Below, piece after piece: positions 12,261 through 49,792 of a stretch of 64,000 bases of DNA. Source of the stretch: Anaerolineae bacterium (GTDB lineage Bacteria > Chloroflexota > Anaerolineae > Epilineales > Epilineaceae); contig JBGAUA010000003.1 of the NCBI GenBank assembly GCA_044228875.1, forward strand, positions 8,401 through 72,400. Reading direction: 5' to 3'. A program made the translations under genes and the position numbers. Position 1 is the stretch's first letter. Every line of letters begins with the position of its first letter. The notes under the pieces are model-generated. The model was not told where the DNA came from. It worked only from the letters and a program-made list of their open reading frames with translations, and ran no database searches.

Positions 12261-12263
12261 GCC

Positions 12264-34989: not shown

Positions 34990-36423
34990 TCAGCGACCCA
35001 CCAGACGCAGAACCTTGGCTGCGGTCCGGAGCAGGATCCAGCCGTCCAAGAGCAGTGAACGGTGCTTGATATAGTACAGATCGTACTGCAGTTTGAGAAG
35101 CGCGTCGTCCGTGGACGCGGCGTAGTCCTGGTGGACGGCCGCCCAGCCCGTCAGCCCCGGCGCCACCGCGTGGCGGGCGCGGTAGAAGGGAATGACCTCC
35201 GCCAGCCGGGCTACGAACTCCGGCCGCTCCGGCCGCGGCCCGATCAGGCTCATCTCCCCGCGCAGGATGTTGAAGGCCTGCGGCAACTCGTCCAGGCGCG
35301 AGCGGCGCAGCCAGCGCCCCAGCCGGGTGACCCGCGGATCCGCGGCCGCCGCCCACCGCGGCCCCGCAGCCTCAGCGCCCGGCTGCATCGTCCGCAGCTT
35401 GTAGAGGGTGAAGGGCCGCCCTCCGCGACCGAGCCGCGTCTGACGGAAGAGAATCGGCCCCGGGCTGTCCAACCAGATCAGGGGGGCCAGAAGCGGCAGG
35501 AGCAGCGCAAGGAAGGCCAGCCCGCCGAGGCCGGCGACGATGTCGCCGGCCCGCCGTCCCAAGCGGTACAAGCCTCTGGACTCCGGAAGACTGAGCGGCA
35601 GAACCACCGCCCATTGCTCGCCGATATGCTCCACCGGCACGCGACCGGTCAGCTGCTCGTAGAGCAGGGGCATGGGGGTGAGCGCAACCCCTTGCTCCTG
35701 GGCATCCAGCACGGCACGGAAGAGGCCGGCCTCCATGCCGTGGGTAATGGCCAGCACCACCTCTGTGACACCCAGATCACGAATGCCGGTCAGGAGGGAC
35801 TCGCGGCCGCCCAGGACCGGGAGATCCGCCACCTGGCGCCCGGCCAGTTCCGGGTCGTCGTCGATGAAGCCGACCACCTCGTAGAGCGGCGCCGCCTCGG
35901 CGCGGACAGCCGCCAGGATCGTCCGTCCGGCCTCGCCGGCGCCGACGATGATCAGCCGCGTGCGGAAGGCGCGGCGCTCGACCACCGCCAGGAAGGCCAG
36001 CCGCCAGAAGGGCAGGGCGAGTGCCGAACCCAGGGCGAAGAAGACCGCCACGTGCCGGACCAGGGTCCAGGGCGGGGGGATGAAGTAGGCAAGGGCCCAG
36101 AGGAGCAGCAGCTGGCCACCGACCGTCAACGGACCCACGAAGGCCAGCAGGCGGCGACGGGGGCGTCCCAGCTCGTAGAGGCCGTTGGCCCAGGCCAGGG
36201 CCAGCCAGAGCGGCAGAAGCAGAGCCAACCAGCGCAGGTACTCGCCCGCGAAGGGCCGTTCCGCCCAGTTCCACCCGGAGCGCAGACCGCCCATGCGCAG
36301 GGCAAGCGCGAGCAGGGCCGCCAGCAGAAGGAAGTCGCCGCCGGCAAGGATGGCCTGACGGCTGCGCCGGTCCAGGGGGAGAAAGGATGGCGCGTTCGCC
36401 GCCGCCGCGGGCGCGGCGCTCAA
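34990..36423 (-). CDS. polyprenyl-phosphate sugar phosphotransferase (WbaP/EpsB-type), copy 2
   Basis: SPGPILFRQTRLGRGGRPFTLYKLRTM...DELPQAFNILRGEMSLIGPRPERPEF, with a RLIIVGAGEAGRTIL linker. Start placed at TTG 36423 (TTGA overlap with the upstream stop). The upstream ATGs at 36495 and 36534 lie inside the preceding GT2 gene and translate to A/G/R/P-rich junk. Confidence 0.9.
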   Translation of the reverse strand: MSAAPAAAANAPSFLPLDRRSRQAILAGGDFLLLAALLALALRMGGLRSGWNWAERPFAGEYLRWLALLLPLWLALAWANGLYELGRPRRRLLAFVGPLTVGGQLLLLWALAYFIPPPWTLVRHVAVFFALGSALALPFWRLAFLAVVERRAFRTRLIIVGAGEAGRTILAAVRAEAAPLYEVVGFIDDDPELAGRQVADLPVLGGRESLLTGIRDLGVTEVVLAITHGMEAGLFRAVLDAQEQGVALTPMPLLYEQLTGRVPVEHIGEQWAVVLPLSLPESRGLYRLGRRAGDIVAGLGGLAFLALLLPLLAPLIWLDSPGPILFRQTRLGRGGRPFTLYKLRTMQPGAEAAGPRWAAAADPRVTRLGRWLRRSRLDELPQAFNILRGEMSLIGPRPERPEFVARLAEVIPFYRARHAVAPGLTGWAAVHQDYAASTDDALLKLQYDLYYIKHRSLLLDGWILLRTAAKVLRLVGR

Positions 36424-37439
36424 AACGCGTCCCGCCGCCGCGTGGCGCGGGTCGCCGGCGCGTCCAGGGCCTCCCGCCAGAAGCCCAGCCCCCATGAAAG
36501 ATGCATGCACAACAGGACGGGCGGCAGCAGGCACACGTCACGCAAGGCCGCCCGACGCCGCAGCTGCCAGGCGGCTGCCAGCAGGGCCAGCAGGTAGGCC
36601 GCCGGGAGCGTCGCCAACCAGAGCCGCAACGCCGGTCGGATGACGGCCAGGAACAGCGCCAACGACAGGAAGGCGACCCACAGCGCTGGCAGCAGCTGCC
36701 GCCAACGCAAGGAGCCGCGGTGCTTGCGCCAGGTGGCGGCCCGGCCCCGGCCGTAGCCCCAGTACTGGCGCACCAGGCCGGCGGCGCTGCCACGGGTCAG
36801 GGTGCTGCTGCGGATCGCCGGGTCCAGCCACACCGTTCCGCCGGCCGCGCGGATGCGCAGGGCCAGCTCGTAGTCCTGGTTACGCTCCAATGCCTCGTCA
36901 AAGCCGCCCAGGCGCGCGAGCGTCGCGCGCGGCCAGGCGCCCAGGTAGACCGTGTCCACCGGCCCCACCCCGCCGCGGCGGAAGGCGGCGTCGCCGGCGC
37001 CCAGAGGATGGGTCCAGGCCAGGGCCACCGCCCGACCCCAGGCCGTCGCGCCCCGCCCACGCAGACCCCCGCCCACGCAGTCGGCGCCCGTGGTATCGAG
37101 GGCCGCAAGGCAGGCCGTCACGTAGTCCGGGGCCGGCAGGGCATGGGCATCGAGGCGCAGGATCACCGCGCCGCGGGCGGCGGCCAGGGCGGCGTTCAGT
37201 CCCGCCGGCGTGCTGCCGGCGGCATTGTCCACCCAACGAATGGGGCAGTCCGCACACCGGCGCTCGTCGGCCAGGGCCACTGCCCTCGTCGCCCCGTCCC
37301 CCGGCAGGCCGGCAACGAGAATCTCCAGTCCCCCTGCCGGCCGCTCGCCGGCCAGGAGGGCGTCCAGGCAGAGGCCGAGGACCGCCCCAGCGTCACGGGC
37401 GGGAATGATCACCGAGACAGCAGGCGCCGTCGCGCTCAT
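36420..37439 (-). CDS. glycosyltransferase family 2 protein with C-terminal TM helices
   Basis: VSVIIPARDAGAVLGLCLDALL...ILRLDAHALPAPDY...FDEALERNQDYELALR. ATG 37439 overlaps the upstream stop (ATGA). The longer track ORF (to 38513) is out of frame with the real upstream gene. Confidence 0.85.
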   Translation of the reverse strand: MSATAPAVSVIIPARDAGAVLGLCLDALLAGERPAGGLEILVAGLPGDGATRAVALADERRCADCPIRWVDNAAGSTPAGLNAALAAARGAVILRLDAHALPAPDYVTACLAALDTTGADCVGGGLRGRGATAWGRAVALAWTHPLGAGDAAFRRGGVGPVDTVYLGAWPRATLARLGGFDEALERNQDYELALRIRAAGGTVWLDPAIRSSTLTRGSAAGLVRQYWGYGRGRAATWRKHRGSLRWRQLLPALWVAFLSLALFLAVIRPALRLWLATLPAAYLLALLAAAWQLRRRAALRDVCLLPPVLLCMHLSWGLGFWREALDAPATRATRRRDAF

Positions 37440-38680
37440 CGGCGACCGACCGCGATCCCTGATTGCCGCGGCGCCGCGGTCTGCGCGCGCCGGTAGACCG
37501 CGTCCGTGGCCCGCGCGGCATGATCCCAGGTCCAGGCCGCGGCCACGGCCAAGGTCTGGGATTCCAGCCGCCGCCGCCAGGCTGAATCGGCAAGCAAGCC
37601 GGCGAGGCCGGCCGCCAGGGCTGCCGGGTCTCCAGGCCGCACCAGCAAGCCGCCGCCGTCGGCAAGGGCCTCCGGCAGGCCGCCGACGGCGGTGGCCAGC
37701 ACCGCCCGCCCGCGGCCGCGTGCCGCCGCCAGCACCGCGCTCATGTCGATGTCGCGGTAGGGCAGCACCACCAGGTCCGCGGCGGCGAAGGCCATGTCTC
37801 GCTCCGCCCGCGGCAGGTAGCCGCTCTGGAAGTCGACCGCTGCCGCGCCGCCGGCCCGATCCACCCGCCGCTGCCAGTCCGCCAGGGCGGCCGCGCCGCC
37901 CGCCACCGCCCCACGGACCATCAACCGCGCCGCCGGTAGGCCGGCGCGGACCGCCGGCCAGGCATCCAGGAGCTGGTCCAGGCCCTTGTAGGGACGCACA
38001 TGGCCCAGGAAGAGCGCCAGGGGGACCGCGGGGTCGATGCCCAGGACCATCCGCGCGGTGACGCGGTCGACGGGCGTCGTCACCGGATCGGCCGGCATGG
38101 GCACGACGGTCACCGGTGGGGCAGCCGCTCCCAGAAGGTTCGCCATGCGCTGTCGCGAGACCTCGCAGTGGACGATCAAGGCCCCGGCGCTGCGGTAGAG
38201 CCGACGCCAGACCACGGCCTGGCCGGCATGCCTCTCGTGGGGCAGGACGTTGTGCGCGGTGTAGACCGCGGCCCGGCCGCGAGCCCGGGCGACGGCCAGG
38301 GACGCAGCATCGACCAGCGGCGCCAGGCTCCATTGCTGGTGGAACACGCCACCCCGCCCCCGGCGATTCTCCAGCCGCCGCAGGGCGACCAGTTCCAGCG
38401 GATAGGTCAGGAGGCGGGCCAGGCGGCGTGGCAACGGTCGCGATCGCAGGAGGCCGGCGGCCCGGCTCGGCCCGGACAGCCAGGGAGCAAAGGCGGTCAG
38501 GACCTCGGCGCATTCCGGAGCCTGGGCCCGGTCCGCCAGCAGCGGCGCGGCGGCGAAGGTGACACGCCAGCCGGCGCGCGTCATGGCCTCGGCCAGGAAC
38601 CGGTCGTAGTCGGGCACCTGGTGGGCGGGATCCACCATCAGCACCCGCCGGATGCCGGACGGCGCGGTGGCAGCGGCCAT
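37436..38680 (-). CDS. glycosyltransferase family 4 (GT-B) protein
   Basis: RVLMVDPAHQVPDYDRFLAEAM...VYTAHNVLPHE...VLPYRDIDMSAVLAAARGRGRAVLATAVGGLPEAL (E-x7-E-like C-terminal motif). Confidence 0.85.
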   Translation of the reverse strand: MAAATAPSGIRRVLMVDPAHQVPDYDRFLAEAMTRAGWRVTFAAAPLLADRAQAPECAEVLTAFAPWLSGPSRAAGLLRSRPLPRRLARLLTYPLELVALRRLENRRGRGGVFHQQWSLAPLVDAASLAVARARGRAAVYTAHNVLPHERHAGQAVVWRRLYRSAGALIVHCEVSRQRMANLLGAAAPPVTVVPMPADPVTTPVDRVTARMVLGIDPAVPLALFLGHVRPYKGLDQLLDAWPAVRAGLPAARLMVRGAVAGGAAALADWQRRVDRAGGAAAVDFQSGYLPRAERDMAFAAADLVVLPYRDIDMSAVLAAARGRGRAVLATAVGGLPEALADGGGLLVRPGDPAALAAGLAGLLADSAWRRRLESQTLAVAAAWTWDHAARATDAVYRRAQTAAPRQSGIAVGRR

Positions 38681-38687
38681 GGTCGCT

Positions 38688-39845
38688 TCAGCCTGTCCGC
38701 TCGGCCAGGATCGTGTGGTAGAGGGAGGCCAGCCGCCGTGCGGCATGGCCCGGCGAGCAATGCAGGCCGACATGGCGCCGGGCGGCCTCGCCCAGGCGGC
38801 CGGCTTGCTCCGGGTTGTCCACGAGGGCCAGCAGCCGCTCGGCCAGCTTGTCGGGGGAGCGCGGTGGGATCAGAAGGCCCGTCTCGCCGTCCTTGACCAC
38901 ATCCGGCACGCCGCCCACCCGCGAAGCGACCACCGGTCGCGACAGGGCCATCGCTTCCAGAAGCACCACCGGCAGGCCCTCCTGCCGCGAGGGCAGCGCC
39001 ACCAGATCGCTCGCGGCCAGGAGCGAGGGCACGTCGGCACGATAGCCCAGGAAACGCAGGACACCCTCCAGTCCCAAGGCCCGGGCCTGAGCCTCCAAGT
39101 CCTGCCGCAGAGGCCCGTTGCCGGCGACGAGGAAGCGGGCCTGCGGCCGGAAGGTGTGCACCACCTGCGCGGCGATGAGAAAGTCATCGATGCCCTTCTG
39201 CGGCGAGAGCCGCCCGATCAGGCTGATGACCGTGGCGTCCAGCGGCAAGCCCAGCCGGGTGCGCACGGCCTGGGGGTCATCGGCTTCGGCGGCGATACGA
39301 TCGACATCGATGACATTGGGCACCAGGACCACCCGCCGCTCGTCCAGACCACGCGCCAGGAGCATCCTGCTCTGGTCGCGGGAGACGGTGACGACCCGGT
39401 CCGCGAGGCGCAGGAGGAACAGATCGATGGCCCGATACAGCCGCAGGCGGCGGGAGGTGCCGGTATGCAGATGCACCGTGGCCACCCAGGGCAGGGCCCG
39501 GTCGGAGCGCCGCGCGGCCAGACCACCCAGGATGTTGCTCTTGTAGTCGTGGGTATGCAGCACGTCGGCGCCGCTCCCCTGCACCCGCCGGGCCACCCGG
39601 CGGGCCAGGCCCAGGCTGAACGGCCCGGGGTCTTCCATCTGCTCCGCCTCGAGGCCCCGCTCACGGGCGCGCTCCAGCCAGGGATGCAGCTCCGACCCGC
39701 CGTCCGGAGCGCGGTAGAGCGCCAGGATACGGGTGGCCACGGCGTAGTCCCGCAGGGCGTCCACCAGCAGCAGCAAGGCCTGCTCCGGCCCGTAGGACTG
39801 GGTTGAGCTGCGAACGTTGAGCACGGCCAGCGGCGGGCGGTTCAC
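38688..39845 (-). CDS. glycosyltransferase family 4 (GT-B) protein
   Basis: DVLHTHDYKSNILGG...GRLSPQKGIDDFL...VALPSRQEGLPVVLLEAMALSRPVVASRVGGVPDVV. GTG start in a GTGA overlap with the upstream stop. Confidence 0.9.
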   Translation of the reverse strand: MNRPPLAVLNVRSSTQSYGPEQALLLLVDALRDYAVATRILALYRAPDGGSELHPWLERARERGLEAEQMEDPGPFSLGLARRVARRVQGSGADVLHTHDYKSNILGGLAARRSDRALPWVATVHLHTGTSRRLRLYRAIDLFLLRLADRVVTVSRDQSRMLLARGLDERRVVLVPNVIDVDRIAAEADDPQAVRTRLGLPLDATVISLIGRLSPQKGIDDFLIAAQVVHTFRPQARFLVAGNGPLRQDLEAQARALGLEGVLRFLGYRADVPSLLAASDLVALPSRQEGLPVVLLEAMALSRPVVASRVGGVPDVVKDGETGLLIPPRSPDKLAERLLALVDNPEQAGRLGEAARRHVGLHCSPGHAARRLASLYHTILAERTG

Positions 39846-40999
39846 GCGGCGGCCCTCCGCCGATGGTCCAACGCCGCCAGCCAGTGGTCGTACTGGTCCT
39901 GGAGCGCCGCGGCATGCGCTTCGATGCTGAAGCGCTCCCGCGCCAGCGCCTGCCCGGCCGTCCCCATCCGTGCCCGACGGGCCGGATCCGTGATCAGGCT
40001 TCGAATGGCCGCGGCCAGCGCCGCGGGATCACGCGGCGGCACGAGCAACGCCGTGCTCCCGTCGTCCACCGCCTCGGCCACGCCTCCCACCCGCGTGGCG
40101 ACAACGGTCCGTCCCGCCGCCTGGGCCTCGAGCAATGCCAGGGGCAGGCCCTCGATGTCCGAGCCGAGGACCACCAGGTCGCAGGCGGCGTAGAGACGTG
40201 GGAGGTCGTCGCGCTGACCGAGGAACTGCACCCGGTCGGCCAGGCCGGCCGCCGCCGCGAGGGCCGGCAGCGTCGCGGTCAGGGGACCGTTGCCGGCGCA
40301 TAGGAGCCTCGGTCGCGGGAGGCAATCGGCCAACAGGACCATGGCGGCCAACAGGTCCGCGTGGCGCTTCTGGGGGTGGAGCCGGGCCGGCGTGAGGAGC
40401 AGCAGGTCATCGAGGGCCAGGCCCAAGGCGGACCGTGCGGCGCTGCGATCCTGCCCGCCGAAGGTCTCGAGCCGGATGCCGTTGGGCAACACCGCCACCC
40501 GACGGGGGTCGATGCCCTGGCGAACCAGCCAGGCGGCGTCGGCAGCGGAGACGGCCAGATAGCGTTGGCCGGGAAGGCGGTCCAGCAGCCGATCGGCCAG
40601 GCGGCGCGCCCGACCGGGCGCCAGGGGTCGGCAATGTTCGTGGGCGATGGTCAAGGGCAGGCCGGCCATGCGGGCGGCCAGGCGGGCATAGGGCGCCACG
40701 CGGCTGTAGAGCGGGGTCTGGACGATGGCTGCCCCGCTGGCACGCAAGGCGGCGGCCAACGCGAGCACCGCCCCCCCGTCGCGAGGGCCGCGCAACCGAC
40801 CCAGCACATGGACGGGAACGCCCATCGTCCGCGCCGCAGCCACCGAAGGGCCCTCGTCCCGGGCGCAGATGAGAACCGGACGGTAACGGGTGGGGTCGAG
40901 CCGCCGCCAGCCGTCCAGCGCCAGGCGTTGGGCGCCGCCCTGCCCGAAGTCCAGGAAGACATGGGCCACGGTCACCGGAACGCCCGGCACGGCGTTCAC
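39842..40999 (-). CDS. glycosyltransferase family 4 (GT-B) protein
   Basis: VAHVFLDFGQGGAQR...ARLHPQKRHADLL...VLGSDIEGLPLALLEAQAAGRTVVATRVGGVAEAV. GTG start in a GTGA overlap. Confidence 0.9.
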   Translation of the reverse strand: MNAVPGVPVTVAHVFLDFGQGGAQRLALDGWRRLDPTRYRPVLICARDEGPSVAAARTMGVPVHVLGRLRGPRDGGAVLALAAALRASGAAIVQTPLYSRVAPYARLAARMAGLPLTIAHEHCRPLAPGRARRLADRLLDRLPGQRYLAVSAADAAWLVRQGIDPRRVAVLPNGIRLETFGGQDRSAARSALGLALDDLLLLTPARLHPQKRHADLLAAMVLLADCLPRPRLLCAGNGPLTATLPALAAAAGLADRVQFLGQRDDLPRLYAACDLVVLGSDIEGLPLALLEAQAAGRTVVATRVGGVAEAVDDGSTALLVPPRDPAALAAAIRSLITDPARRARMGTAGQALARERFSIEAHAAALQDQYDHWLAALDHRRRAAA

Positions 41000-41403
41000 G
41001 AACGGAAGACCATGGCCACGCCGATGATGATCACCACCACGCCCAGGACCCGCTCAAGGGAGATCGTCTCCCCCAGCAGGTGGTGCGCGCTCAGGAGCAG
41101 CGGCAGGTAGCCCAGGGCCAACAGGGGATAGGCCCAGGACAGAGGCTCCCGCGACAGAACCCGGGTCCAGAACAGGGCGGCGACGAACGCGAGCCCATAG
41201 CCTCCGGTGAGCGCCGGAATGGTGAAGGCCTTCCAGAGCCCGGACAGGGAGAACTGCATCTCGCCGCCCATCTGGTTGGTGCCGTGCTTCATCAGCAGTT
41301 CGGCCACCTGGCCGATGGCGATGGCGACCAGCAGCAGCGCGAAGCTCCCCCAGCGTTGATCGGTTGGCATGGTTCTTAGGGTCTCCTGTGATTGCGCGCT
41401 CAC
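40996..41403 (-). CDS. small four-TM EamA/SMR-like (ArnE/ArnF-type) membrane protein, putative polyprenyl-phosphate-sugar flippase subunit
   Basis: WGSFALLLVAIAIGQVAELLMKHG...LSWAYPLLALGYLPLLLSAHHLLGETISLERVLGVVVIIIGVAMV (EamA half-domain pattern). GTG 41403 (GTGA overlap) or ATG 41370 as start. Confidence 0.65.
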   Translation of the reverse strand: MSAQSQETLRTMPTDQRWGSFALLLVAIAIGQVAELLMKHGTNQMGGEMQFSLSGLWKAFTIPALTGGYGLAFVAALFWTRVLSREPLSWAYPLLALGYLPLLLSAHHLLGETISLERVLGVVVIIIGVAMVFRS

Positions 41404-42158
41404 GCGACGCTGGATGATGGTGAACGACGCGCCGTGGCGATGACCGACAATCCGAAGGGCAGTCGATGGCCCGCGGCGATCCAGCGTCGCTCGACGTCGA
41501 GCACCGCGATCGCCAGCCGGTTTATCGGTTCTGGCGGGATGGTCAGGTCACGCGCCGGACCGGCCGGTGTGAAGCGCTCAGCGAAACGCCAGAGGATGGC
41601 CGCGCCGAGAAGCAGGCCGTTGGCGTAGGTCAACCGTTCGACCTCGAAGCCCGCCTGCCGCAGGCGATCCGCCAGCAGATGGGCGTTGTAGCGCTCGCGC
41701 GTGCCTACCTCGTCATCATGGCGGCCGCGCAGCCAATCATAGGCCGGCACTTGGATGAGCAGGCGCCCGCCCGGCCGAAGGATACGGTGGAATTCACGCA
41801 ACGCCGCCAGGTCGGAACCCACGGCCTGATGGTACACCACGTCCAAGGAGCTGACGCTGTCGAAGCTCTCCGACTTCAGAGGAAGCGCGGTGACCGTCGC
41901 CTGGCAGCGCTGCCGTATGCCGCGCCGCCCGGCCCAAAGGAGTGCATCGCGGTAGAGATCCACCGCGACCGCCGCCGGCGCTTCCGGCCGCGCCCGGGCC
42001 AGAGCCGCCAGCCAGCCGCCCGTGCCGCAGCCGGCGTCCAGCAACTCGCCGGGATCTCCCGTTCCCAGGAGCAGGCCCATGGCGGTCGCGCGCATGCCCA
42101 GGTACCACCAATGCAGATCCTCTACGCGGGCCAGGGTTCGATAGGCGGCTTGATTCAT
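41400..42158 (-). CDS. class I SAM-dependent methyltransferase
   Basis: HWWYLGMRATAMGLL...LLDAGCGTGGWLAAL (motif I)...FDSVSSLDVVYH...LRPGGRLLIQVP. Confidence 0.9.
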   Translation of the reverse strand: MNQAAYRTLARVEDLHWWYLGMRATAMGLLLGTGDPGELLDAGCGTGGWLAALARARPEAPAAVAVDLYRDALLWAGRRGIRQRCQATVTALPLKSESFDSVSSLDVVYHQAVGSDLAALREFHRILRPGGRLLIQVPAYDWLRGRHDDEVGTRERYNAHLLADRLRQAGFEVERLTYANGLLLGAAILWRFAERFTPAGPARDLTIPPEPINRLAIAVLDVERRWIAAGHRLPFGLSVIATARRSPSSSVA

Positions 42159-42231: not shown

Positions 42232-42260
42232 TTGACCACCCTTGGGCCGGATCCTATAGT
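42232..42260 (+). promoter_or_regulatory. sigma-70-type promoter candidate (TTGACC-17-TATAGT) for the GT-C/GT2/FemAB/YdjC operon
   Basis: TTGACC at 42232-42237 and TATAGT at 42255-42260 with exactly 17-nt spacing, about 80 nt upstream of ATG 42342. The complementary strand offers TGGTCA-16-TAAGAT for the divergent methyltransferase operon. Confidence 0.55.
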
Positions 42261-42341
42261 CTGCGCGGTGGCTTCCTTCTCGCATCCAGCAGGCCTCGCC
42301 CGCTCTCGGCCAGGGCCTTCAGCTGTCTTCTCGTCGAAGTC

Positions 42342-44078
42342 ATGCTAGGGCCATCCCCTGCCGCGGGCAGGCGCTGGCTGCTGATCAGCCTCGTCCTGTA
42401 TCTGGCACTGCGCATCCTGGCCCTGGCCTCCGTGGCGGTGCTCGAAGACCGCGACAGCACGAGCCTGATCCGTGACGCCCAGGTCTTCGCCAGTTGGGAT
42501 GCGGCCCGGATCATCGACCTGCGCCCGGATGCCACGCCGCTCTACCCGCTGCTGACCGCTGTCGCGAACCGCCTGGGCATGTCCTGGGTCTTCGGCGCCC
42601 GCTTCGTATCCTGGTTGGCCGCCGCCCTGTTGGCCTTGGCGATGACCGGCATCGCGCTGCGGCTGGCGCCTCCTGACGCTTCAGGTCCGCCGGCTCCGGA
42701 ACGCTCGGCGACGGCACGGTCCTGGACCCTCCACGTCGCCGCGGCCGGCGTGGCGGTCATGGCCCTCAGCCCCACCTTGGTGGACCTGTCTCGCTCTGTG
42801 CTCACCGAGGGTCTGTACATCGCCGTGGTCTACGGTGGCCTGTGGCTGCTGCTTCGCCGTGGCGCCGCCCCGAGCCGGCGCGGCGCCATGCTTCTGGGGG
42901 CCGTCTTCGCCCTGGCATTCCTGGCGCGAACCGAAGGCCTGCTCTACCTGGCTGCCGTTCCCGTCATCCGGCTTGCCACCGCCTGGAGCGCGGACCGCGG
43001 ATCCGGCGGCAGGACGCGGTGGGTGTCCAGCACTCGCACCTGGCTGTCCTGGTCCGCCGCCTATGCCCTGGGCTTTGGGCTGCTGGCGCTGCCGCAGGTC
43101 TGGCGGGTGAGCCGGTCCATGGGGCAACCGGCATTCAACGGACGCCAGGTCTGGCAAGTCATCCTGAACCAACCAGGCGACAAGCCGTACGAGCAGAAGA
43201 TCTACGGGCTGGACCACAGCCCTTACCAGATCAACCTGGTCTACATCCAGAGCCATCCCGAGCAGGCGCGGCTCATGGCCGGCAACGTGGCCGGCTCCGA
43301 CCTTGTCGCCAAGGCCGCCGGCCTTGGGCGAGGCTTCCTGACCCGAAGCCTGCCCCGGCTCATCAGCCCGCTCGGCCTGCTGCTGGCCGCCCTGGGCGTG
43401 ATGGCGCTCTGGCAGGCGCGCCGCAGGGCGGACCTGGCATGGATGGGTCTCTTCCTGGGCGCCAGTCTGGCCGCCCCCTTGCTGCACGACCTGGACCCCC
43501 GCCACCTGGCGGTGTCCCTGCCAGTCCTCGCGCTCTTGCAGGGCATCGGCCTGGTCTGGCTGGCGGGTGCTTCGCCACCCGGTCTGGGGACGCCGCTCCT
43601 CCCGAAGGTCGCGGCGCGACCAAGGGTCGCGATGCGCGCGGCCTTGACGGTCGCGACCTTGGCCGGCCTGCTCTTGGGCATGCGAAAGGACCTGGCTTTG
43701 GCGACATGGCCGCCACCTGAGAGTCGCGACTACGCCATGGCCGATCAACAGGCGCTGCTGACGGCGCTCCGCCAGGCCGATTGGCCGAAGCCGGTGGATG
43801 GGCTGCGGATCACCGCCCGTCAGGGCTACTTCTCGCTGGCTGCCGGTGCCCAGGAAGTCTACCTGCCTTTCGCCGACTACGAGGCTTTGGTGACGTATTG
43901 CCGTTTCAACCAGGTGGACGTCCTTCTGCTGGAGCACGATCTCCTGGAACGCTACCCTTTCCTGCCGCGCTTCGCGGCGGAGAGCTCGCCGGACTTCATC
44001 CGCGTCCATCGCCACGTCAGCCCCAGCCATGGCCTCCTGGAGCTTTACCGCTTCAGCCCGCGCGGGGACGGATCGTGA
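42342..44078 (+). CDS. GT-C fold polytopic membrane glycosyltransferase (ArnT/PMT-like, GT39/GT83-type)
   Basis: Many TM helices, a first-loop acidic motif VLEDRDSTSLIRDA, and a periplasm/exterior-type C-terminal soluble domain. The track ORF start at 41466 is antisense to the methyltransferase and rejected; ATG 42342 is used. Confidence 0.75.
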   Translation: MLGPSPAAGRRWLLISLVLYLALRILALASVAVLEDRDSTSLIRDAQVFASWDAARIIDLRPDATPLYPLLTAVANRLGMSWVFGARFVSWLAAALLALAMTGIALRLAPPDASGPPAPERSATARSWTLHVAAAGVAVMALSPTLVDLSRSVLTEGLYIAVVYGGLWLLLRRGAAPSRRGAMLLGAVFALAFLARTEGLLYLAAVPVIRLATAWSADRGSGGRTRWVSSTRTWLSWSAAYALGFGLLALPQVWRVSRSMGQPAFNGRQVWQVILNQPGDKPYEQKIYGLDHSPYQINLVYIQSHPEQARLMAGNVAGSDLVAKAAGLGRGFLTRSLPRLISPLGLLLAALGVMALWQARRRADLAWMGLFLGASLAAPLLHDLDPRHLAVSLPVLALLQGIGLVWLAGASPPGLGTPLLPKVAARPRVAMRAALTVATLAGLLLGMRKDLALATWPPPESRDYAMADQQALLTALRQADWPKPVDGLRITARQGYFSLAAGAQEVYLPFADYEALVTYCRFNQVDVLLLEHDLLERYPFLPRFAAESSPDFIRVHRHVSPSHGLLELYRFSPRGDGS

Positions 44079-45130
44079 ACGAGCCCCTGCGCCGCACGGC
44101 GGATCAGCCGCGGCCATTCTCGGCGGCAATGGATGGGCCGCCGGACGCGCCGACGTCAGAGCTCCTGCTCAGCATCGTCATCCCGGCCTACGGGGAGGCG
44201 GGCAACCTGTTCCCGCTGTACGAGGAGATCCTGGAGGCGATGGTGGCGGTTCCCGGCTGGGAGCTGATCATCGTCGACGACGGCAGCCCGGACGACACCT
44301 GGGCGGAGGTGCGGGCGCTGAACGCCCGTGACCCACGGGTGCGAGGGCTGCGCCTCTCGCGCAACTTCGGCCACCAGTACGCCCTGTTCGCCGGCTTGGG
44401 CGCCGCCCGGGGTCAGGCGGTGGTGACGATGGACGCCGATCTGCAGCATCCGCCGGCAGTGATCGGGCAGCTGCTGGAGGAATGGCGCCTTGGCAGCAAG
44501 ATCGTCCACACCCTGCGCATCGACCAAGTGGGCATCAGCTGGCACAAAAAGCTGAGTTCGGCCCTGTTCTACCGGATCTTCTCCTTCCTCAGCGGCGTGG
44601 ACCTGTCGGCGGGCATGGCCGACTTCCGCCTGCTGGACCGCCAGGTGGTCCGCGAGCTGCTGCGCTTCCAGGAAGACGGACTCTTTCTGCGCGGCCTGGT
44701 CCAATGGGTGGGCTTCCCCAGCGTCCGGGTGCCCTTCCAATGCCGCGACCGCCTGGCCAACCGGAGCAAGTACGGCCTGCGCCGCATGCTGCGGCTGGCC
44801 GGCGCGGGCATCACCTCCTTTTCGGTCATCCCCCTGCGACTGGGCATCCTGCTGGGGTTGGTCACCAGCCTCTTCGCCTTCTACCAGCTGGGCGAAGCGC
44901 TCTACGTCCATTACGTTACCGGCCGCACCCTGCCGGGCTGGACCTCCACCTTCGGGGTGATGACCCTGCTCTTCGGCGTGATGTTCATCCTGATGGGCAT
45001 CCTGGGAGAATACCTGGGCCGCATCCTGCTGGAGGTGCGCGGCCGCCCGCGTTTCATCGTCGCCGATGCCATCGGCGAGCCGGCCGGGGCCGAGCCTCCA
45101 CCCGTCGACGTCCGCGGGGCGGGGCGCTGA
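44075..45130 (+). CDS. polyprenyl-phosphate glycosyltransferase (GT2; GtrB/ArnC/DPM1-like) with two C-terminal TM helices
   Basis: LSIVIPAYGEAGNLFPLYEEI...ELIIVDDGSPDDTW...RLSRNFGHQYALFAGL...AVVTMDADLQHPP...WVGF..., with a C-terminal membrane hairpin. GTG 44075 in a GTGA overlap with the GT-C stop; ATG 44129 is the alternative. Confidence 0.9.
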   Translation: MNEPLRRTADQPRPFSAAMDGPPDAPTSELLLSIVIPAYGEAGNLFPLYEEILEAMVAVPGWELIIVDDGSPDDTWAEVRALNARDPRVRGLRLSRNFGHQYALFAGLGAARGQAVVTMDADLQHPPAVIGQLLEEWRLGSKIVHTLRIDQVGISWHKKLSSALFYRIFSFLSGVDLSAGMADFRLLDRQVVRELLRFQEDGLFLRGLVQWVGFPSVRVPFQCRDRLANRSKYGLRRMLRLAGAGITSFSVIPLRLGILLGLVTSLFAFYQLGEALYVHYVTGRTLPGWTSTFGVMTLLFGVMFILMGILGEYLGRILLEVRGRPRFIVADAIGEPAGAEPPPVDVRGAGR

Positions 45131-45138
45131 GAGCCGCC

Positions 45139-46161
45139 ATGCGCACCATTCCCCTGGAACCCCGATACCGGCCGCAATGGGAGCGCTTCGCCACGGAGCA
45201 TCCCGCCGCCACGGTGGCCCATGACCTGCGCTGGGCCACCGTGGTCGAGAACAGCTACAGCCATCAGCCGCGGCACCTGATGGCCTTCGACGGGGACGCG
45301 GTGGCCGGCATCCTGCCCCTCTTCCTGGTGGACGGCGGACCCCTGGGCCGCAGCCTGGTGAGCAGCCCCTTCCTGACCTATGGCGGTGTGGCCGCCAGGG
45401 ATGACGAAGCGGCATGGGCCCTGGCGGAGGCGGCCAGGGCCATGGCCATCTCCCTGGGCGTGGACCATGCCGAGGTGCGCAACGACCGATTGGAGCCGGG
45501 CTTTGCCCACACCAAGACCCTGTACCATACCCTGCGCCTGGATCTCAGCGGAGGGCCGGAGCGCCTGTGGGCCGGTCTGCACGCCTCGGCGCGGCGCAAT
45601 GTGCGCAAAGCCCAGAAGGCGGGACTGGATCTGGTGGAAGGTCTGGAGCATCTGGACGCCTTCGTCGACATCAACCACCGCAACATGCATCGGCTGGGCA
45701 CGCCGGCTCATGGGGGCGCCTTCTTCGGCGAGGTGGCTCGGCAGTTCCCCCAGGCCCGGCTGCTCATGCTGCGCCGGGGGCGGGAAGGGGTTGGCGGGAT
45801 GCTGCTGCTGCCGCACAAGGACACCGTGCACATGCCCTGGGTGGCATCCCTGGAAACGTTCTTCGACCTGCGCCCCAACAACCTGCTCTACTGGGAAGCC
45901 ATCCGCGGCTCCGCCGAGCACGGCTTCGCCAGCTTCGACTTCGGCCGCAGCCGGGAGGACCAGGGTACCTTTCGTTTCAAGGTGCAACATGGGGGCTTGC
46001 CGGTGCCGTTGTACTACCAGTACCACCTGGCCAGCGCCAAGGCCGTCCCGCACCTGGACCCCAGCGCGCCGCGCTTCCGAGCCCTGGTGGCGGTCTGGCG
46101 TCGCCTGCCCTTCCCCCTGGCCCGCGCCTTGGGGCCGCGGCTGATCGGTTGGATCCCGTAG
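45139..46161 (+). CDS. FemAB-family (GNAT-fold) acyl/aminoacyl-transferase, EPS-locus type
   Basis: WERFATEHPAATVAHDLRWATVVENSY...AGILPLFLV...LVSSPFLTYGGV...ARRNVRKAQKAGL...HRNMHRLGTPAHGGAFF...VHMPWVASLETFFDLRPNNLLYWEAI...FDFGRS resembles the FemAB-related proteins found in exopolysaccharide loci. Confidence 0.75.
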   Translation: MRTIPLEPRYRPQWERFATEHPAATVAHDLRWATVVENSYSHQPRHLMAFDGDAVAGILPLFLVDGGPLGRSLVSSPFLTYGGVAARDDEAAWALAEAARAMAISLGVDHAEVRNDRLEPGFAHTKTLYHTLRLDLSGGPERLWAGLHASARRNVRKAQKAGLDLVEGLEHLDAFVDINHRNMHRLGTPAHGGAFFGEVARQFPQARLLMLRRGREGVGGMLLLPHKDTVHMPWVASLETFFDLRPNNLLYWEAIRGSAEHGFASFDFGRSREDQGTFRFKVQHGGLPVPLYYQYHLASAKAVPHLDPSAPRFRALVAVWRRLPFPLARALGPRLIGWIP

Positions 46162-46165
46162 ACCG

Positions 46166-47071
46166 ATGGCGAAGCCCGTGCGGTTTTCTCTGGCGGACCC
46201 TGCAGCGCGCCTGCTCATCGTCCACGCCGACGATTTCGGCCTGTCGTCGGATATCGACGCCGGCATCCTGCGCGCCCACCGCGAAGGAATCGTCACCTCG
46301 GCCTCCTTGGTGGCCGGGGGTGAGTCCTTCTCCGCCGCGGTGGCGGCGGCGCGGGACACGCCCACCTTGGACATCGGCGCTCACCTGACCTTGGTGGGTG
46401 AACGGCCGGTCCTGGACCCGCGGCTGGTACCTAGCCTGGTGGGTCCAGACGGGCGCTTCCACCGCCACGCCAACGGCTTCATCGCCCGCTTCCTGACCGG
46501 AAGGATCGTGATGGGGGAGCTGCGCGCGGAATTGGCTTCCCAGCTCGAACGGCTCCTGGCCACCGGCTTGCCCATCAGCCACCTGGACAGCCACCAGCAC
46601 CTGCACGTCCTGCCGGGGATCAGCCGCCTGACGGCCGAACTGGCCCGCGAACACGGCATCTCTTTCATTCGCCTGCCCCGGGAGCGGCGGCCGCCGGGTC
46701 GGGGATCTGACGCCGGACGGCTGCGGCGCCTTCAGCGCGTGGCCCTTCAAGGCTGCTCGGCCCTGGCACGGCGTCACGGGCCGCGCCAGGGCCGGCGCCA
46801 TCCGGATGCCTTCCACGGCTTCCTCGACGGCGGCCGCTTGGATCGGACAGCCCTGCTGCGCGTGCTGGACGCGGTAGGGCCGGGCCTGAGCGAACTCATG
46901 TGCCACCCAGGGCTGGGGGTGGCGCCCCTGCCCCATCACGTCGACTGGGGCTATCGCTGGTCGGCGGAGCTGGATGCCTTGACGGACCCGCGTGTCCGCG
47001 AGCGCGTGGACGCCCTCAGCCTTCAGCTGGTAGGCTACGGGGAGATCGGCCTTCGGCAAACGGAGACTTGA
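46166..47071 (+). CDS. YdjC/ChbG/HpnK-family carbohydrate deacetylase
   Basis: LLIVHADDFGLSSDIDAGILRAHREGIVTSASLV...DIGAHLTL...ISHLDSHQHLHVLPG are hallmark YdjC metal-binding motifs (D-D...H...H-x-H). Confidence 0.85.
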   Translation: MAKPVRFSLADPAARLLIVHADDFGLSSDIDAGILRAHREGIVTSASLVAGGESFSAAVAAARDTPTLDIGAHLTLVGERPVLDPRLVPSLVGPDGRFHRHANGFIARFLTGRIVMGELRAELASQLERLLATGLPISHLDSHQHLHVLPGISRLTAELAREHGISFIRLPRERRPPGRGSDAGRLRRLQRVALQGCSALARRHGPRQGRRHPDAFHGFLDGGRLDRTALLRVLDAVGPGLSELMCHPGLGVAPLPHHVDWGYRWSAELDALTDPRVRERVDALSLQLVGYGEIGLRQTET

Positions 47072-47159
47072 GCCCCAGAGGGTTGAGGGTTGGGATCCAG
47101 GTGAGGGACGCCGGCACCGACAGGACCACCGGGCCATCCCAGCGGGCGATCGCTGGACC

Positions 47160-48173
47160 TCAGCCGAAGCGCTCGCTCCGCCCAAAGCGCCCCCCGAGGT
47201 AGTCGGCGATCCCCCACAGCACCGCGACCGCGTCGCGCCGCCGGCTGGGGAAGAGCCATCGCAGCGGTTGGCGCGCGGCCAGGGTCATGGTCTCCAGCCA
47301 GCAGCGCCGCCTCGCCGCCCTGTCGCCCCAGCGCCGCGCGAAGCGCAGGCGGTTGCGGATGTTGTAGTAGCGCCGTCGCGCCGGATCCGTGGCGGTGCCG
47401 GCCGACCCCAGATGCAGTACCCATGCCTGCGGCACGTAGCAGATCCGCCAGCCGGCCTCCCGGGCGCGCAGACCCCAGTCCACGTCCTCGAAGTAGAGGT
47501 AGCAGGCTTCGTCGAACGCGCCCACCGCCTCCCAGGCGCGGCGGCTGATCAGGCTGGCCGCGCCGCTGGGGTAGTCCGGATCCGGTGAATGGTCGTACTG
47601 GCCCTCGTCGGCCTCGCCTTCGCCGCGCAAGGCGGCGAAGGCACGTTGGCGGTCGACGGCGCCCCCGGCCCCGTTTAGGATGCCCGGTCGATCGCGATAG
47701 CCCAGCCGGGCCGTTGTTGCCGCGATGCGGGGATCCTCGGCGAGGGCTCGGGCGAGCGCTGCGACCGCTCCCGGCTGGACGAGGGCATCGTCGTTGAGGA
47801 TCAAGACGGCCACCGCACCCATGTCCCAGGCCGCCTGCCCGCCCTGGTTCACTGCTGTCGGCCAACCGCGGTTGTCGGGATTGCGAATGACCCGGATCCA
47901 CAACGGCGGCGCGTTCACACGGGGCATCGTCGCGTCATGGCGAACGCCGTCATCCCTCTCGTGTACCGCTGCGCCCCGCCCCTCCAGCCAGTCGCCCGTT
48001 CCATCCGTAGAGGCATTGTCCACCACCACTGCGCCGACGATCTGGCCCCGGAGCGCGCTCAGGACCTCCGGCAGGCGCTGGCGGGCGTTCCAGGCCGGGA
48101 TGACTGCCCAGACACCCGCCCCGGGCTCCGTGGCGCCGAGCGCGACATCGCCCGACCGATCCGTCGCGGTCAT
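47160..48173 (-). CDS. glycosyltransferase family 2 protein (rhamnosyltransferase-like)
   Basis: WAVIPAWNARQRLPEVLSAL...VVVDNASTDGT...VLILNDDALVQPGAV...YLYFEDVDWGLRAREAGWRICYVPQAWVLH. Confidence 0.85.
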   Translation of the reverse strand: MTATDRSGDVALGATEPGAGVWAVIPAWNARQRLPEVLSALRGQIVGAVVVDNASTDGTGDWLEGRGAAVHERDDGVRHDATMPRVNAPPLWIRVIRNPDNRGWPTAVNQGGQAAWDMGAVAVLILNDDALVQPGAVAALARALAEDPRIAATTARLGYRDRPGILNGAGGAVDRQRAFAALRGEGEADEGQYDHSPDPDYPSGAASLISRRAWEAVGAFDEACYLYFEDVDWGLRAREAGWRICYVPQAWVLHLGSAGTATDPARRRYYNIRNRLRFARRWGDRAARRRCWLETMTLAARQPLRWLFPSRRRDAVAVLWGIADYLGGRFGRSERFG

Positions 48174-49792
48174 GGCCCCGGCATCCCGCGGCCTGTCAAC
48201 CGCCGTCCCAGGTCGCCGAGCAGCGCCTGATCATCGTCGGTCAGCTCGCCCGAGCATCGCAAAGTCGCCAGGGCGGCCGCCGCTCCCGCCGCGCCGCTCA
48301 AGAGCAGCCCCGGCCAAACGGCCGGAAGGCTGGTAATCAGACCTCCGGCCACGAGCCCCCCGATCGCCGCCGCCAGAACCGCTCGGCCATCGGGGAACAG
48401 CTCCCTCGCGCGCAAGCCCTGCTCCAAGGCGAAGGCCGCCAGCATCCACAGCCCGCCGGCGGCCAGGCCGCCGGTCAATCCGCAGGCGACGCCCGCGAGC
48501 CCCCAGGATCGGGCCAGGTAGGCACCGCCCAGGGAGACAGCGGCCGTGCAGAGCCCAGCCGCCGTGCTATGCGCGGGTTGTCCGGCCGCCTGGGTGATCA
48601 AGAAGGCCGGCAGGGCCATGAGGGCCAGCATCCAGCCGGGGCTGAGAATCTGGACCGCTCGAGCCACTTCGGGCGCCGGATCGCCCCCCAGCCACAGCCG
48701 GCAGAAGGCCGGCGCCAGAACGGCCATCAGGCACCAGCCGGGCAGCACCAGCCGGCCGGTCCAGCGCCAGGCCCGGGCGTGCAGATCGAGGATGGCCTGA
48801 CGACGTCCGGCTCCGGCGGAGATGCCGTCCAGCCGGGCCGCGGCGGGAAAGAGCCCCGCGGCAGCGGCCATGCAGGCACCGCCGAACTGGCCCGTGATGC
48901 GCGCGGCGAGTTCGTAGGCCGCCACGGCGCCCAGACCGCTGGCCGCACCCAGGATGACCTTTGCTGCCGGGTCGATCAGGGCGCTGGCCAGGTTGACCGA
49001 CTGAGCATGGCTGCCGAAGCGAAGGAGCTGGGCGGCGACCACCGGCGACAGACCAGGACGGGTTACCGCCAGCACTGGGTTGACGCGAGATAGCTCCCGC
49101 TGGATCCATAGACCGGCCAGTACCGCCATGGCGGCGTTCTTCGCGACGAGACCGACGAGGCCTCCACCGGCCCAGAGCACCGGCAACACCAGCCACGGTG
49201 ACAGCAGGCGCTGGACCACCGCATCGATCAGGTTGACCCGATCCAATCGCCCGAGGCCCTCAAGGGCGGCCTGGCCGGGAGCGAACAGGCCTTCCAGGGC
49301 AGCGACCGCGGCGGTACCCAGGAACACCCAGCCCGCCTCCCGGGCCAGATCGGCCGGTATTCCGAAGCGGGGATCGATCAGAGCGGGCAGGAGGAGCGAC
49401 ACGAGTGCGATAACCCCCAGGCCCACCAGAATCGCGAGGCCGCGAGCGGTGGCCAGGGCCTGGACGGTGGCCGAAACAAGCGGATCGGCGCGCCGCGTCA
49501 GGGCCGCCTGCCGGCTCAGCGCCCGCCCCACGCCCAGGTCCGCCAGCCGCAGCAGACCGATCAGCCCCCCGGCTGCGGCCCAGAGCCCGAAACGCGCCGC
49601 CCCCAGCCGATCCAAGGTGAAAGGGGTCACAAGGAGGGCGCTCAAAGCGCCGATGACCACCCGACCGCCGCCGCTCAGGGCGGAGACCGCCAGCCGCGGC
49701 GTATCCGGGTTCGCGTCGCCGGAAGTCGAGGGCTGATCGGTCGACTTCTGTCGACCTGTTGACGGCGGGTCAACGGTACTGGGTTCTGGCAT
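48170..49792 (-). CDS. polysaccharide flippase (Wzx-like, MOP/MATE superfamily)
   Basis: About 12-14 predicted TM helices with Gly/Ala/Leu-rich composition. N-terminal pattern LVTPFTLDRLGAARFGLWAAAGG is typical of the 'polysaccharide biosynthesis protein' family. ATGA overlap with the downstream GT2. Confidence 0.75.
   Translation of the reverse strand: MPEPSTVDPPSTGRQKSTDQPSTSGDANPDTPRLAVSALSGGGRVVIGALSALLVTPFTLDRLGAARFGLWAAAGGLIGLLRLADLGVGRALSRQAALTRRADPLVSATVQALATARGLAILVGLGVIALVSLLLPALIDPRFGIPADLAREAGWVFLGTAAVAALEGLFAPGQAALEGLGRLDRVNLIDAVVQRLLSPWLVLPVLWAGGGLVGLVAKNAAMAVLAGLWIQRELSRVNPVLAVTRPGLSPVVAAQLLRFGSHAQSVNLASALIDPAAKVILGAASGLGAVAAYELAARITGQFGGACMAAAAGLFPAAARLDGISAGAGRRQAILDLHARAWRWTGRLVLPGWCLMAVLAPAFCRLWLGGDPAPEVARAVQILSPGWMLALMALPAFLITQAAGQPAHSTAAGLCTAAVSLGGAYLARSWGLAGVACGLTGGLAAGGLWMLAAFALEQGLRARELFPDGRAVLAAAIGGLVAGGLITSLPAVWPGLLLSGAAGAAAALATLRCSGELTDDDQALLGDLGRRLTGRGMPGP

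Follow-up and report, generated by a model that had tools for sequence, protein, structure and literature searches.

A FemABX-fold gene in a YdjC-linked glycan decoration operon of an Anaerolineae bacterium: candidate aminoacylation step in a pathway resembling Nax, Lgm and Arn

A 64,000-nucleotide (nt) stretch of contig from an Anaerolineae bacterium (hereafter the window) carries a gene for a 340-amino-acid (aa) FemABX-fold transferase at positions 45139..46161 of the plus strand, in an operon with genes for a GT-C fold membrane glycosyltransferase, a GtrB/ArnC-type GT2 glycosyltransferase and a YdjC-family de-N-acetylase. We propose that this operon encodes a lipid-carrier decoration pathway of the Nax/Lgm/Arn type to which a Fem aminoacylation step has been added, and we put the probability of this complete chain at roughly 0.45. 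The parts of the proposal differ in strength. A functional coupling of the Fem protein to the YdjC protein is very likely, and it is probable that the Fem enzyme N-acylates the amine freed by YdjC. Given that N-acylation, aminoacyl-tRNA is the probable donor, and given that donor, a polyprenyl-phosphate-monosaccharide is the somewhat favoured acceptor. The Fem cassette is not a one-off but a conserved module present in several phyla. Precedents exist for the individual parts and for the chemistry, though not for their combination or its biological setting; a cassette of the Nax/Lgm/Arn type with a Fem step was not found in the literature searched.

The Fem open reading frame (ORF) starts with ATG at 45139, ends with the stop TAG at 46159-46161 and translates into 340 aa. 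A gap of 8 nt (gagccgcc) separates its ATG from the stop codon of the upstream GT2 gene (TGA, 45128-45130), and 4 nt (accg) lie between its own stop and the ATG of the YdjC gene at 46166. The longest mechanical ORF in the same frame starts at 44482 (559 aa); the start was set at 45139 because homologues of 340-346 aa align from residue 1. Coding status was checked because the window, with 70% GC, has long ORFs in several frames. GC contents at codon positions 1, 2 and 3 of the Fem gene are 0.73, 0.48 and 0.87, respectively. The nearest genome is that of Candidatus (Ca.) Epilinea brevis (Chloroflexota), in which synteny is full and the Fem protein is 84% identical; the two orthologous genes differ at 40 first, 34 second and 91 third codon positions, and their codon changes comprise 72 synonymous and 55 non-synonymous ones. 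A total of 1221 homologues were obtained at E<=1e-5. The ORF is a genuine gene and no chance ORF of a 70% GC genome. An initial annotation, made from the sequence alone, had described a 340-aa FemAB/GNAT-fold protein 8 nt after a GT2 stop and 4 nt before a YdjC start. Its coordinates and spacing are exact, and its gene identities agree with the domain and structural matches given below for the Fem, GT2 and YdjC proteins.

The strongest Pfam match of the Fem protein is PF13480 Acetyltransf_6 (3.6e-17), and PF02388 FemAB is matched over residues 120-211 only, at 1.4e-8 and 34.5 bits against a gathering score of 24. The NCBIfam model TIGR03019 ('FemAB family XrtA/PEP-CTERM system-associated protein') is matched over the full length with 277.4 bits, for a cut-off of 260.35; a member from a Geomonas XrtA locus scores 392 bits. 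An AlphaFold2 (AF2) model built on 84 homologues has a mean predicted local distance difference test (pLDDT) value of 97.3, and two tandem GNAT-like domains with a cleft are present in it, as in its Foldseek matches. In the Foldseek comparison with the PDB, the 14 best matches are all tRNA-dependent transferases, namely Sbb17/Sba18, Weissella viridescens FemX (FemX_Wv), Staphylococcus aureus FemX (FemX_Sa) and FemA and, at ranks 12-14, the catalytic domains of the MprF aminoacyl-phosphatidylglycerol synthases; tandem GNATs that use acetyl-coenzyme A (acetyl-CoA) appear only from rank 15. The template-modelling scores are 0.66-0.68 for FemX_Wv and 0.67 for FemX_Sa with a probability of 1.00, as summary scores of comparisons that start from predicted models. 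A Fem-family profile searched against PDB sequences found Sbb17 (1.5e-14; structure 9wqw, 9.4e-15 by Foldseek), S. aureus FemX (5e-12) and Weissella FemX (3e-9), and all PDB sequence matches with E<1e-8 are tRNA-dependent enzymes.

In the profile alignment, F280-K281 of the Fem protein align with F304-K305 of FemX_Wv. Both residues are invariant in the 84 homologues, and at least 97% of 90 locus-encoded copies keep them. The catalytic residue in Weissella FemX is K305, and DhpH-C has an essential lysine at the equivalent position (PMC12945691). A basic helix at residues 149-160 (SARRNVRKAQKA) has basic counterparts in the aligned sequences of Sbb17, FemX_Sa and FemX_Wv. The double-GNAT fold, the Phe-Lys pair and the basic helix at the start of domain 2 are common to the window protein, FemX_Wv and S. 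aureus FemX, FemA and FemB. S. aureus Fem enzymes work at the membrane, on a precursor linked to a polyprenyl carrier ('Lipid II:glycine glycyltransferase'). The window protein differs from FemX, FemA and FemB in its low identity of 14-16%, in having the size of FemX_Wv without a coiled-coil arm, and in its non-peptidoglycan context. K36 of Weissella FemX contacts uridine-diphosphate-N-acetylmuramoyl (UDP-MurNAc)-pentapeptide; the Fem residue at this position is hydrophobic, and K36 is not conserved in the alignment. With the catalytic pair kept and K36 lost, the residues point to a protein that has the Fem catalytic apparatus without a peptidoglycan acceptor site.

A peptidoglycan-branching FemX, building an interpeptide bridge on lipid II or UDP-MurNAc-pentapeptide, would share this fold and catalytic pair, and JGI names some homologues 'serine/alanine adding enzyme'. 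The identity to FemX structures and the loss of K36 speak against such a role, as does the setting in a glycan-decoration operon with no company of mur or fts genes, and a partner deacetylase would make no sense for an acceptor that is a stem-peptide lysine; we consider this explanation scarcely credible. A different enzyme could act at the same pathway position as the one proposed here, namely a tandem-GNAT N-acyltransferase that uses acyl-CoA or an acyl carrier protein as donor and adds a non-acetyl acyl group (for example propionyl, hydroxybutyryl or fatty acyl) to the deacetylated hexosamine. The best Pfam match, PF13480, is indeed an acetyltransferase-type GNAT domain, the Foldseek list includes 2wpw (rank 15) and the Clostridium acetobutylicum glucosamine N-acetyltransferase 5kf1 (rank 42), and an AMP-binding acyl-activating enzyme adjoins the Fem gene in three loci of the sister XrtA clade (L030, L055 and L077). 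However, the closest PDB matches in both sequence and structure are all tRNA-dependent, the Fem-typical Phe-Lys pair is invariant, and PF02388 is above its gathering score. Where the GNAT CoA motif Q/RxxGxG/A would be expected, the protein has LRPNNLLYWE, which appears to resemble the LPN of S. aureus FemX. An acyl donor of this kind is unlikely, and aminoacyl-tRNA is the donor that we favour.

The closest solved structures and sequences to the window protein, at about 20% identity, are those of Sbb17/Sba18, whose PDB entries are titled 'aminoacyl-tRNA-dependent peptide synthase'; two of the three entries are complexes with streptothrisamine. We take Sbb17/Sba18 to be relatives of Orf11 of the BD-12 pathway. 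Orf11 is described as a Fem-like enzyme that transfers glycine from Gly-tRNA onto the C2-amine of the amino sugar of streptothrisamine (PMC10156733, PMC12945691). A deacetylase of N-acetyl-gulosamine has likewise been reported for streptothricin biosynthesis, according to a paper cited in PMC10156733. The initial annotation knew of no description of the chemistry for this pathway type; this stands for a Fem step in such a cassette, which was not met in the literature searched, and falls for the chemistry itself, for which Orf11 provides a sugar-amine precedent (PMC10156733, PMC12945691). Sbb17, Sba18 and Orf11 serve a soluble antibiotic intermediate in Streptomyces, whereas the window protein is encoded among envelope glycan genes in a lipid-carrier pathway. 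MprF resembles the proposed system in that an envelope lipid-linked molecule is aminoacylated in a tRNA-dependent manner and then flipped. It differs in forming an ester on glycerol instead of an amide on a sugar amine and in having its own flippase fused, and there is no match at the sequence level. A further likeness is found in the Pap polysaccharide cluster of Pseudomonas fluorescens F113, where an in silico description places PapO (GNAT/FemX-like) next to the YdjC-like PapP (PMC7716237); PapO has 391 aa and is annotated as CelD-like.

The first gene of the operon encodes the GT-C fold membrane glycosyltransferase (ArnT/PMT_2-like, 578 aa; 42342..44078, plus strand) and is called at the same 578 aa in public data (P0121, 99% identity, 100% coverage). 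An ORF of 870 aa at 41466-44078 was rejected as the form of this gene, its 5' part overlapping a methyltransferase gene on the opposite strand. The GT-C protein itself has no Pfam match; PF13231 PMT_2 is present in its homologues, which bear ArnT-like names. The protein has 8 or more hydrophobic segments. Its AF2 model has a pLDDT of 82, and Foldseek gave 24 matches for it at E<1e-3, every one a GT-C enzyme, among them STT3, ALG9/12, PglB, ArnT (5f15), AftA/B and Pmt4. The residues E35, D38 and S39 are invariant and would lie in the first external loop, and the protein is presumed to be the extracytoplasmic transferase of the modified sugar.

The GT2 gene (44075..45130, plus strand), for a candidate polyprenyl-phosphate (N-acetyl)hexosamine synthase, starts at GTG 44075 or ATG 44129; the stop of the GT-C gene overlaps the former (GTGA). 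A switch of frame in GC content at third codon positions (GC3) is seen near 44060, at the GT2 start region, and a 449-aa ORF from TTG 43781 was rejected, since GC3 in that frame is only 0.43 until about 44060. The product has PF00535 and two C-terminal transmembrane helices, its best NCBIfam matches are PgfS (210 bits) and ArnC (133 bits), and it matches Synechocystis GtrB sll0501 at 2.5e-59 and ArnC at 1.8e-37. The YdjC gene (46166..47071, plus strand) encodes a soluble protein of 301 aa with PF04794 at 8.5e-67. Its best NCBIfam match is the hopanoid-associated HpnK, at 215 bits below the cut-off of 232.6, and it matches the ChbG-like deacetylase 7vi8 at 7.6e-19 with the motifs ADDFG and DSHxHxH aligned. 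With family and motifs intact, it is a candidate de-N-acylase of a carrier-linked sugar.

A promoter-like site (TTGACC-17 nt-TATAGT; 42232..42260, plus strand) precedes the GT-C gene, in a divergent intergenic region. It agrees with the consensus at 10 of 12 positions, as a consensus match only, and is the sole such site in 40900-48300. Because of this single site, the short spacing and the GTGA overlap, the GT-C, GT2, FemAB and YdjC genes appear to be co-transcribed and are probably translationally coupled. This wording is preferable to the 'co-translated' of the initial annotation.

On the minus strand beyond the divergent region, a small membrane protein of the ArnE/ArnF type (EamA/SMR; 40996..41403) is a candidate polyprenyl-phosphate-sugar flippase. 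It has hydrophobic segments, matches EamA at 8.6e-4 and matches ArnF (8.5e-11) and ArnE (1.2e-6) below both cut-offs, and it is 90% conserved in Ca. Epilinea brevis. A GtrA protein replaces it in loci L002 and L088, and a 116-aa protein without Pfam match stands at its position in L081 and L102. Between it and the operon, and divergent from the latter, lies a gene for a class I S-adenosylmethionine (SAM) methyltransferase (41400..42158, minus strand; Methyltransf_23 and Methyltransf_11), a tentative member of the module at most; methyltransferases also adjoin FemAB-YdjC in L086, L087 and L088, with weak similarity (26% identity in L087).

Judged by family assignments, the GT-C, GT2 and YdjC proteins with the adjacent ArnE/F-like protein appear to form a cassette of the Nax/Lgm/Arn type. 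The Lgm pathway of Bordetella comprises LgmABC, and NaxD is a member of the YdjC family. NaxD/FlmF2/FlmK of Francisella, LgmABC and ArnC/D/E/F/T share with the pathway proposed for the window the same logic of GT2 loading, deacylase, small flippase and GT-C transferase, and their GT2 enzymes charge undecaprenyl phosphate with N-acetylhexosamine (HexNAc) or with an amino sugar that carries a formyl group. NaxD deacetylates undecaprenyl-phosphate-N-acetylgalactosamine before its transfer to lipid A (PMC10927774). In these pathways the free amine is the end point and a Fem-type gene is lacking, whereas the window operon has one. Their acceptor is lipid A, whereas the window of the Chloroflexota relative studied here has an LCP ligase gene (29176-30432) and showed no genes for lipid A; the LCP ligase and a Wzx-type cluster, together with this lack, lead us to expect an acceptor other than lipid A.

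The proposed pathway would begin at the cytoplasmic face, where the GtrB/ArnC-like GT2 would build polyprenyl-phosphate-N-acetylhexosamine. The soluble YdjC enzyme would then strip the acetyl group, and the soluble Fem-type enzyme would move an amino acid from aminoacyl-tRNA to the freed C2-amine, giving polyprenyl-phosphate-(N-aminoacyl)hexosamine. The small ArnE/F-like protein (GtrA elsewhere) would flip this product, and the GT-C enzyme would hand it to an envelope acceptor, here most likely the polysaccharide of the adjacent Wzx-type cluster. The Fem and YdjC proteins have no transmembrane or hydrophobic segment and no signal sequence, which fits a step that precedes flipping and takes place at the cytoplasmic face, within reach of tRNA.

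Relatives of the Fem gene were collected in a scan with one genome per species, from which the best 80 loci of at least 599 relatives were taken, and gene contexts were read within 8-10 kb of each Fem gene. YdjC, a GtrB-type GT2 and a GT-C protein stand together beside the Fem gene in two of these 80 loci (Ca. Epilinea brevis and an Ignavibacteriales metagenome-assembled genome (MAG), the latter, L002, in the order DegT, GT2, GT-C, GtrA, FemAB, FemAB, YdjC), and the other 78 are of the XrtA type, with YdjC in none. Metagenomic contigs supplied closer Fem homologues of 45-63% identity (L081-L088). The orders there are GT-C, GT2, FemAB, YdjC (L081/L082); an Arn-like operon, PMT_2, GT2, FemAB, a FemAB fragment and YdjC (L083); GT2, FemAB, YdjC (L084/L085); Formyl_trans_N, FemAB, YdjC (L086, Planctomycetota); GNAT, FemAB, YdjC and, about 4 kb away on the other strand, a GT2 of 45% identity (L087); and methyltransferase, FemAB, followed on the opposite strand by YdjC and GtrA (L088). 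The metagenome scan added the YdjC-bearing loci L089-L093 and L097, and also L095, which ends after FemAB, before the YdjC position. A reciprocal search with the GT-C protein found homologues at 42% and 51% identity that precede GT2-FemAB-YdjC (L100 and L102); the whole GT-C family has 18 homologues, and both members with readable downstream sequence are these two, L101 ending early.

Among FemAB homologues of 42-84% identity with readable downstream sequence, YdjC is thus alongside in all but one (present in L001, L002, L081-L093, L097, L100 and L102), with FemAB-YdjC gaps of 4 to about 235 nt and with YdjC on the opposite strand in L088. The linkage, usually in the order GT-C-GT2-FemAB-YdjC, spans Chloroflexota, Ignavibacteriales, Planctomycetota and unassigned metagenome contigs. 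In neighbour-joining trees of 90 Fem copies, the YdjC-linked copies form one clade with a bootstrap of 72/100, which becomes 95/100 when the divergent second copy from the Ignavibacteriales is left out, and the window protein falls within this clade and outside the XrtA clade. The YdjC-linked and XrtA clades have fixed differences, for example at Y129/K, N179/F, R185/D, H191/Y and Y293/W.

Several further features of the YdjC-linked loci were recorded. Tandem Fem genes precede YdjC in L002 (8918-11026, Ignavibacteriales MAG) and in L083 (8001-10306, where the second copy is a 149-aa fragment); they recall the successive additions by FemX, FemA and FemB, and by analogy could add a dipeptide. 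Directly upstream of FemAB-YdjC are found Formyl_trans_N (L086:7367-7999), a classical GNAT (L087:7274-7942) and a SAM methyltransferase (L088:7333-7995), and it may be speculated that such neighbours, like the methyltransferase of the window, cap the new alpha-amine in some lineages. A very large ORF directly follows YdjC in four loci (L002:13758-16058, L083:11330-17041, L084:3684-10293 and L100:6549-10149). Its product has GDSL-lipase domains in L002, L083 and L084, with fn3 and Big_1 in addition in L083 and L084, and it may be the acceptor of the GT-C enzyme in those taxa, that is, a case of protein glycosylation. The Pgf system, to which the best NCBIfam match of the window GT2 (PgfS) belongs, has a protein acceptor and offers an analogy for the loci with the large ORF. 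In L083 (1-4871), a full Arn-like set (epimerase/dehydratase, formyltransferase, GT2, DegT and a DUF2334 deacylase-like protein) lies directly upstream of PMT_2-GT2-FemAB-YdjC, so that two lipid-carrier amino-sugar systems stand side by side.

The sister XrtA clade, TIGR03019 proper, shows full-length homology to the window protein at 37-44% identity; the two have in common an architecture of two GNAT domains and the invariant motifs NM(H/R)(R/D)LGTP, PNNLLYWEA, DFGRS and GTFRFK. In Geomonas limicola, the locus begins with genes for a chain-length determinant and a Tyr kinase and continues with TIGR03015 ATPase, TIGR03016 outer-membrane protein, TIGR03006 CE4 deacetylase, TIGR03019 FemAB (overlapping the deacetylase gene by 4 nt), GT2, GT2 and TIGR03108 amidotransferase; the Geomonas CE4 protein begins directly at its catalytic motif and has no signal peptide. 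A CE4 deacetylase is immediately beside the Fem gene in 27 of the 78 XrtA-type loci, within 3 kb in 30 and at 3-10 kb in 8 further loci. A DegT aminotransferase is within 3 kb in 24/78, either enzyme is present in 50/78, and in 15/78 the contig is too short to tell. The DegT/DnrJ aminotransferase (about 410-440 aa) is directly downstream of the Fem gene in 12 loci (L004, L022, L032, L033, L035, L037, L051-L053, L060, L069 and L075) and is an alternative source of the sugar amine. The two clades therefore differ in partner (YdjC against CE4 or DegT) and in setting (a GtrB/GT-C lipid-phosphate-sugar cassette against an XrtA exopolysaccharide (EPS) locus), and agree in adjoining an enzyme that yields a sugar amine, which makes a sugar-amine-producing enzyme the constant partner of Fem.

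It might be supposed that the window protein is an accessory of the XrtA/PEP-CTERM exopolysaccharide system, tied to the exosortase, and that its adjacency to YdjC is accidental; the TIGR03019 equivalog cut-off is passed, and JGI and NCBI apply the XrtA/PEP-CTERM name to close relatives. The TIGR03019 match was nevertheless rejected as settling the function. None of the window ORFs scanned matches the exosortase model, or any other model of the XrtA system, above its cut-off, the models for chain-length determinant, Tyr kinase, TIGR03015, TIGR03006 and TIGR03108 included, and tblastn found no CE4 deacetylase in the window, where YdjC stands instead. The protein also lies outside the XrtA clade, and its own clade adjoins YdjC in all but one locus examined, across several phyla. 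The initial annotation had named a conservation with exosortase genes irrespective of the deacetylase as the finding that would contradict its proposal; the loci show the reverse, a separate clade that keeps YdjC beside a sister clade mostly with CE4 or DegT, and an XrtA accessory role is very improbable. The name 'XrtA/PEP-CTERM system-associated' is misleading for members of the YdjC clade, and is borne by a Planctomycetota protein of this clade (P0015) and likewise, at JGI, by the window protein's own cluster.

The XrtA clade also bears on the acceptor. With aminoacyl-tRNA as donor, YdjC and the Fem enzyme could act on a HexNAc in a polyprenyl-diphosphate repeat unit or on a nucleotide sugar, the GT2 and GT-C proteins being an independent side-chain system in the same operon. 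The CE4-FemAB pair of XrtA loci sits among repeat-unit glycosyltransferases, and no GtrB/GT-C pair was seen in the XrtA loci whose genes were annotated; the window GT2 is weakly matched in 6 of the 78 XrtA-clade loci and the window GT-C in none. The acceptor of Weissella FemX is nucleotide-linked (PMC12945691), and in L086 the FemAB-YdjC pair occurs without GT2 or GT-C. On the other side, the order GT-C-GT2-FemAB-YdjC is kept at 42-84% identity with small or negative intergenic distances, both readable members of the small GT-C family precede GT2-FemAB-YdjC, and NaxD is a precedent for deacetylation on a polyprenyl-phosphate-monosaccharide (PMC10927774). A repeat-unit or nucleotide-sugar acceptor is fairly unlikely for the window enzyme, and a polyprenyl-phosphate-monosaccharide is preferred.

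Several points weigh against the proposed pathway. PF13480, the strongest Pfam match, is generic, and we know of no established donor for its members. The loss of K36 would be expected for any other acceptor and gives no positive evidence for this one. The Fem trees are distance-based, and no tRNA gene was found in the window. Thirteen of the 78 XrtA-type loci have neither CE4 nor DegT in spite of adequate flanks. Since L086 has no GT2 or GT-C within 8 kb of its FemAB-YdjC pair, a lipid-phosphate-monosaccharide acceptor is not universal in the clade. The 48%-identical Fem homologue in L094 has no YdjC nearby; the locus looks rearranged, because a group II intron reverse transcriptase/maturase (L094:521-1897) is immediately upstream of the Fem gene, and it is kept as the sole exception to the linkage. 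The literature searched contained no functional study of a PEP-CTERM FemAB, of YdjC with FemAB or of a Fem-like enzyme acting on a polysaccharide; TIGR03019 was found there as a family listed in gene tables (PMC3684757).

The genes that likely make the acceptor glycan lie next to the ArnE/F-like gene, at 34990..40999 on the minus strand. They comprise a priming polyprenyl glycosyl-phosphate transferase (34990-36534), a GT2 (36420 to about 37457) and three GT4 genes (37436-38773, 38688-39845 and 39842-40999), and this order of repeat-unit genes recurs in L001, L081 and L102. A mechanical ORF of 697 aa at 36420-38513 (minus strand) was rejected as a high-GC artefact; it overlaps the GT4 gene at 37436-38773 by about 1 kb, and the GT2 domain and conservation in Ca. 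Epilinea are confined to its C-terminal half (about 36420-37457). Downstream of YdjC and convergent with the operon, a GT2 (47160-48173, minus strand) and a Wzx-like flippase (48170-49792, minus strand) are both conserved in L001. A second priming polyprenyl glycosyl-phosphate transferase, of the WcaJ type and above cut-off, is encoded at 646-2124 (plus strand), 33 kb from the cluster; two or more lipid-linked glycans are thus probably made by this organism.

Other genes of the window were noted in passing. Tandem PurP-like genes (formate-dependent FAICAR synthetase, ATP-grasp) at 49825-50949 and 50972-52114, both on the minus strand, lie just upstream of purD and score 265 and 333 bits, for NCBIfam cut-offs of about 560-580. 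A 1622-aa ORF at 56851-61719 (plus strand) has a coding-like GC3 of 0.81 and no Pfam or NCBIfam match. A 1357-aa protein with CotH kinase, lamin-tail, Fn3-associated and chitobiase C-terminal domains is encoded at 15121-19194 (plus strand), and adjoining it on the opposite strand is a gene for a 1175-aa subtilisin-like protease (19410-22937). A sigma-54-dependent NtrC-type response regulator is followed directly by rpoN (262 bits, just under the cut-off of 277) at 10620-13655 (plus strand).

Aminoacyl-tRNA feeds peptidoglycan bridges, the aminoacylation of membrane lipids and some antibiotics, and to our knowledge it has no recognised part in the decoration of surface polysaccharides or glycoproteins. 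The proposed pathway, if true, would be the first input of aminoacyl-tRNA to bacterial surface glycan decoration, and would be to glycans what MprF is to membrane lipids and D-alanylation to teichoic acids. It would offer a new route by which surface charge and antigenicity are tuned through an extended or capped sugar amine, and would explain the N-aminoacyl amino sugars of bacterial glycans. A broader proposal, which we put forward as tentative, is that the module performs tRNA-dependent aminoacylation of a carrier-linked hexosamine in several phyla, for display on an envelope polysaccharide or a surface protein, and that all TIGR03019 proteins, those of the XrtA/PEP-CTERM loci searched here included, are aminoacyl transferases of sugar amines. 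The large and automatically named 'PEP-CTERM-associated FemAB' family would thereby gain a testable function, and the TIGR03019 equivalog name would be wrong for the YdjC-linked clade. The carriers of the window operon are related to Ca. Epilinea, filamentous Chloroflexota found in activated sludge, in which surface glycans matter for floc structure.

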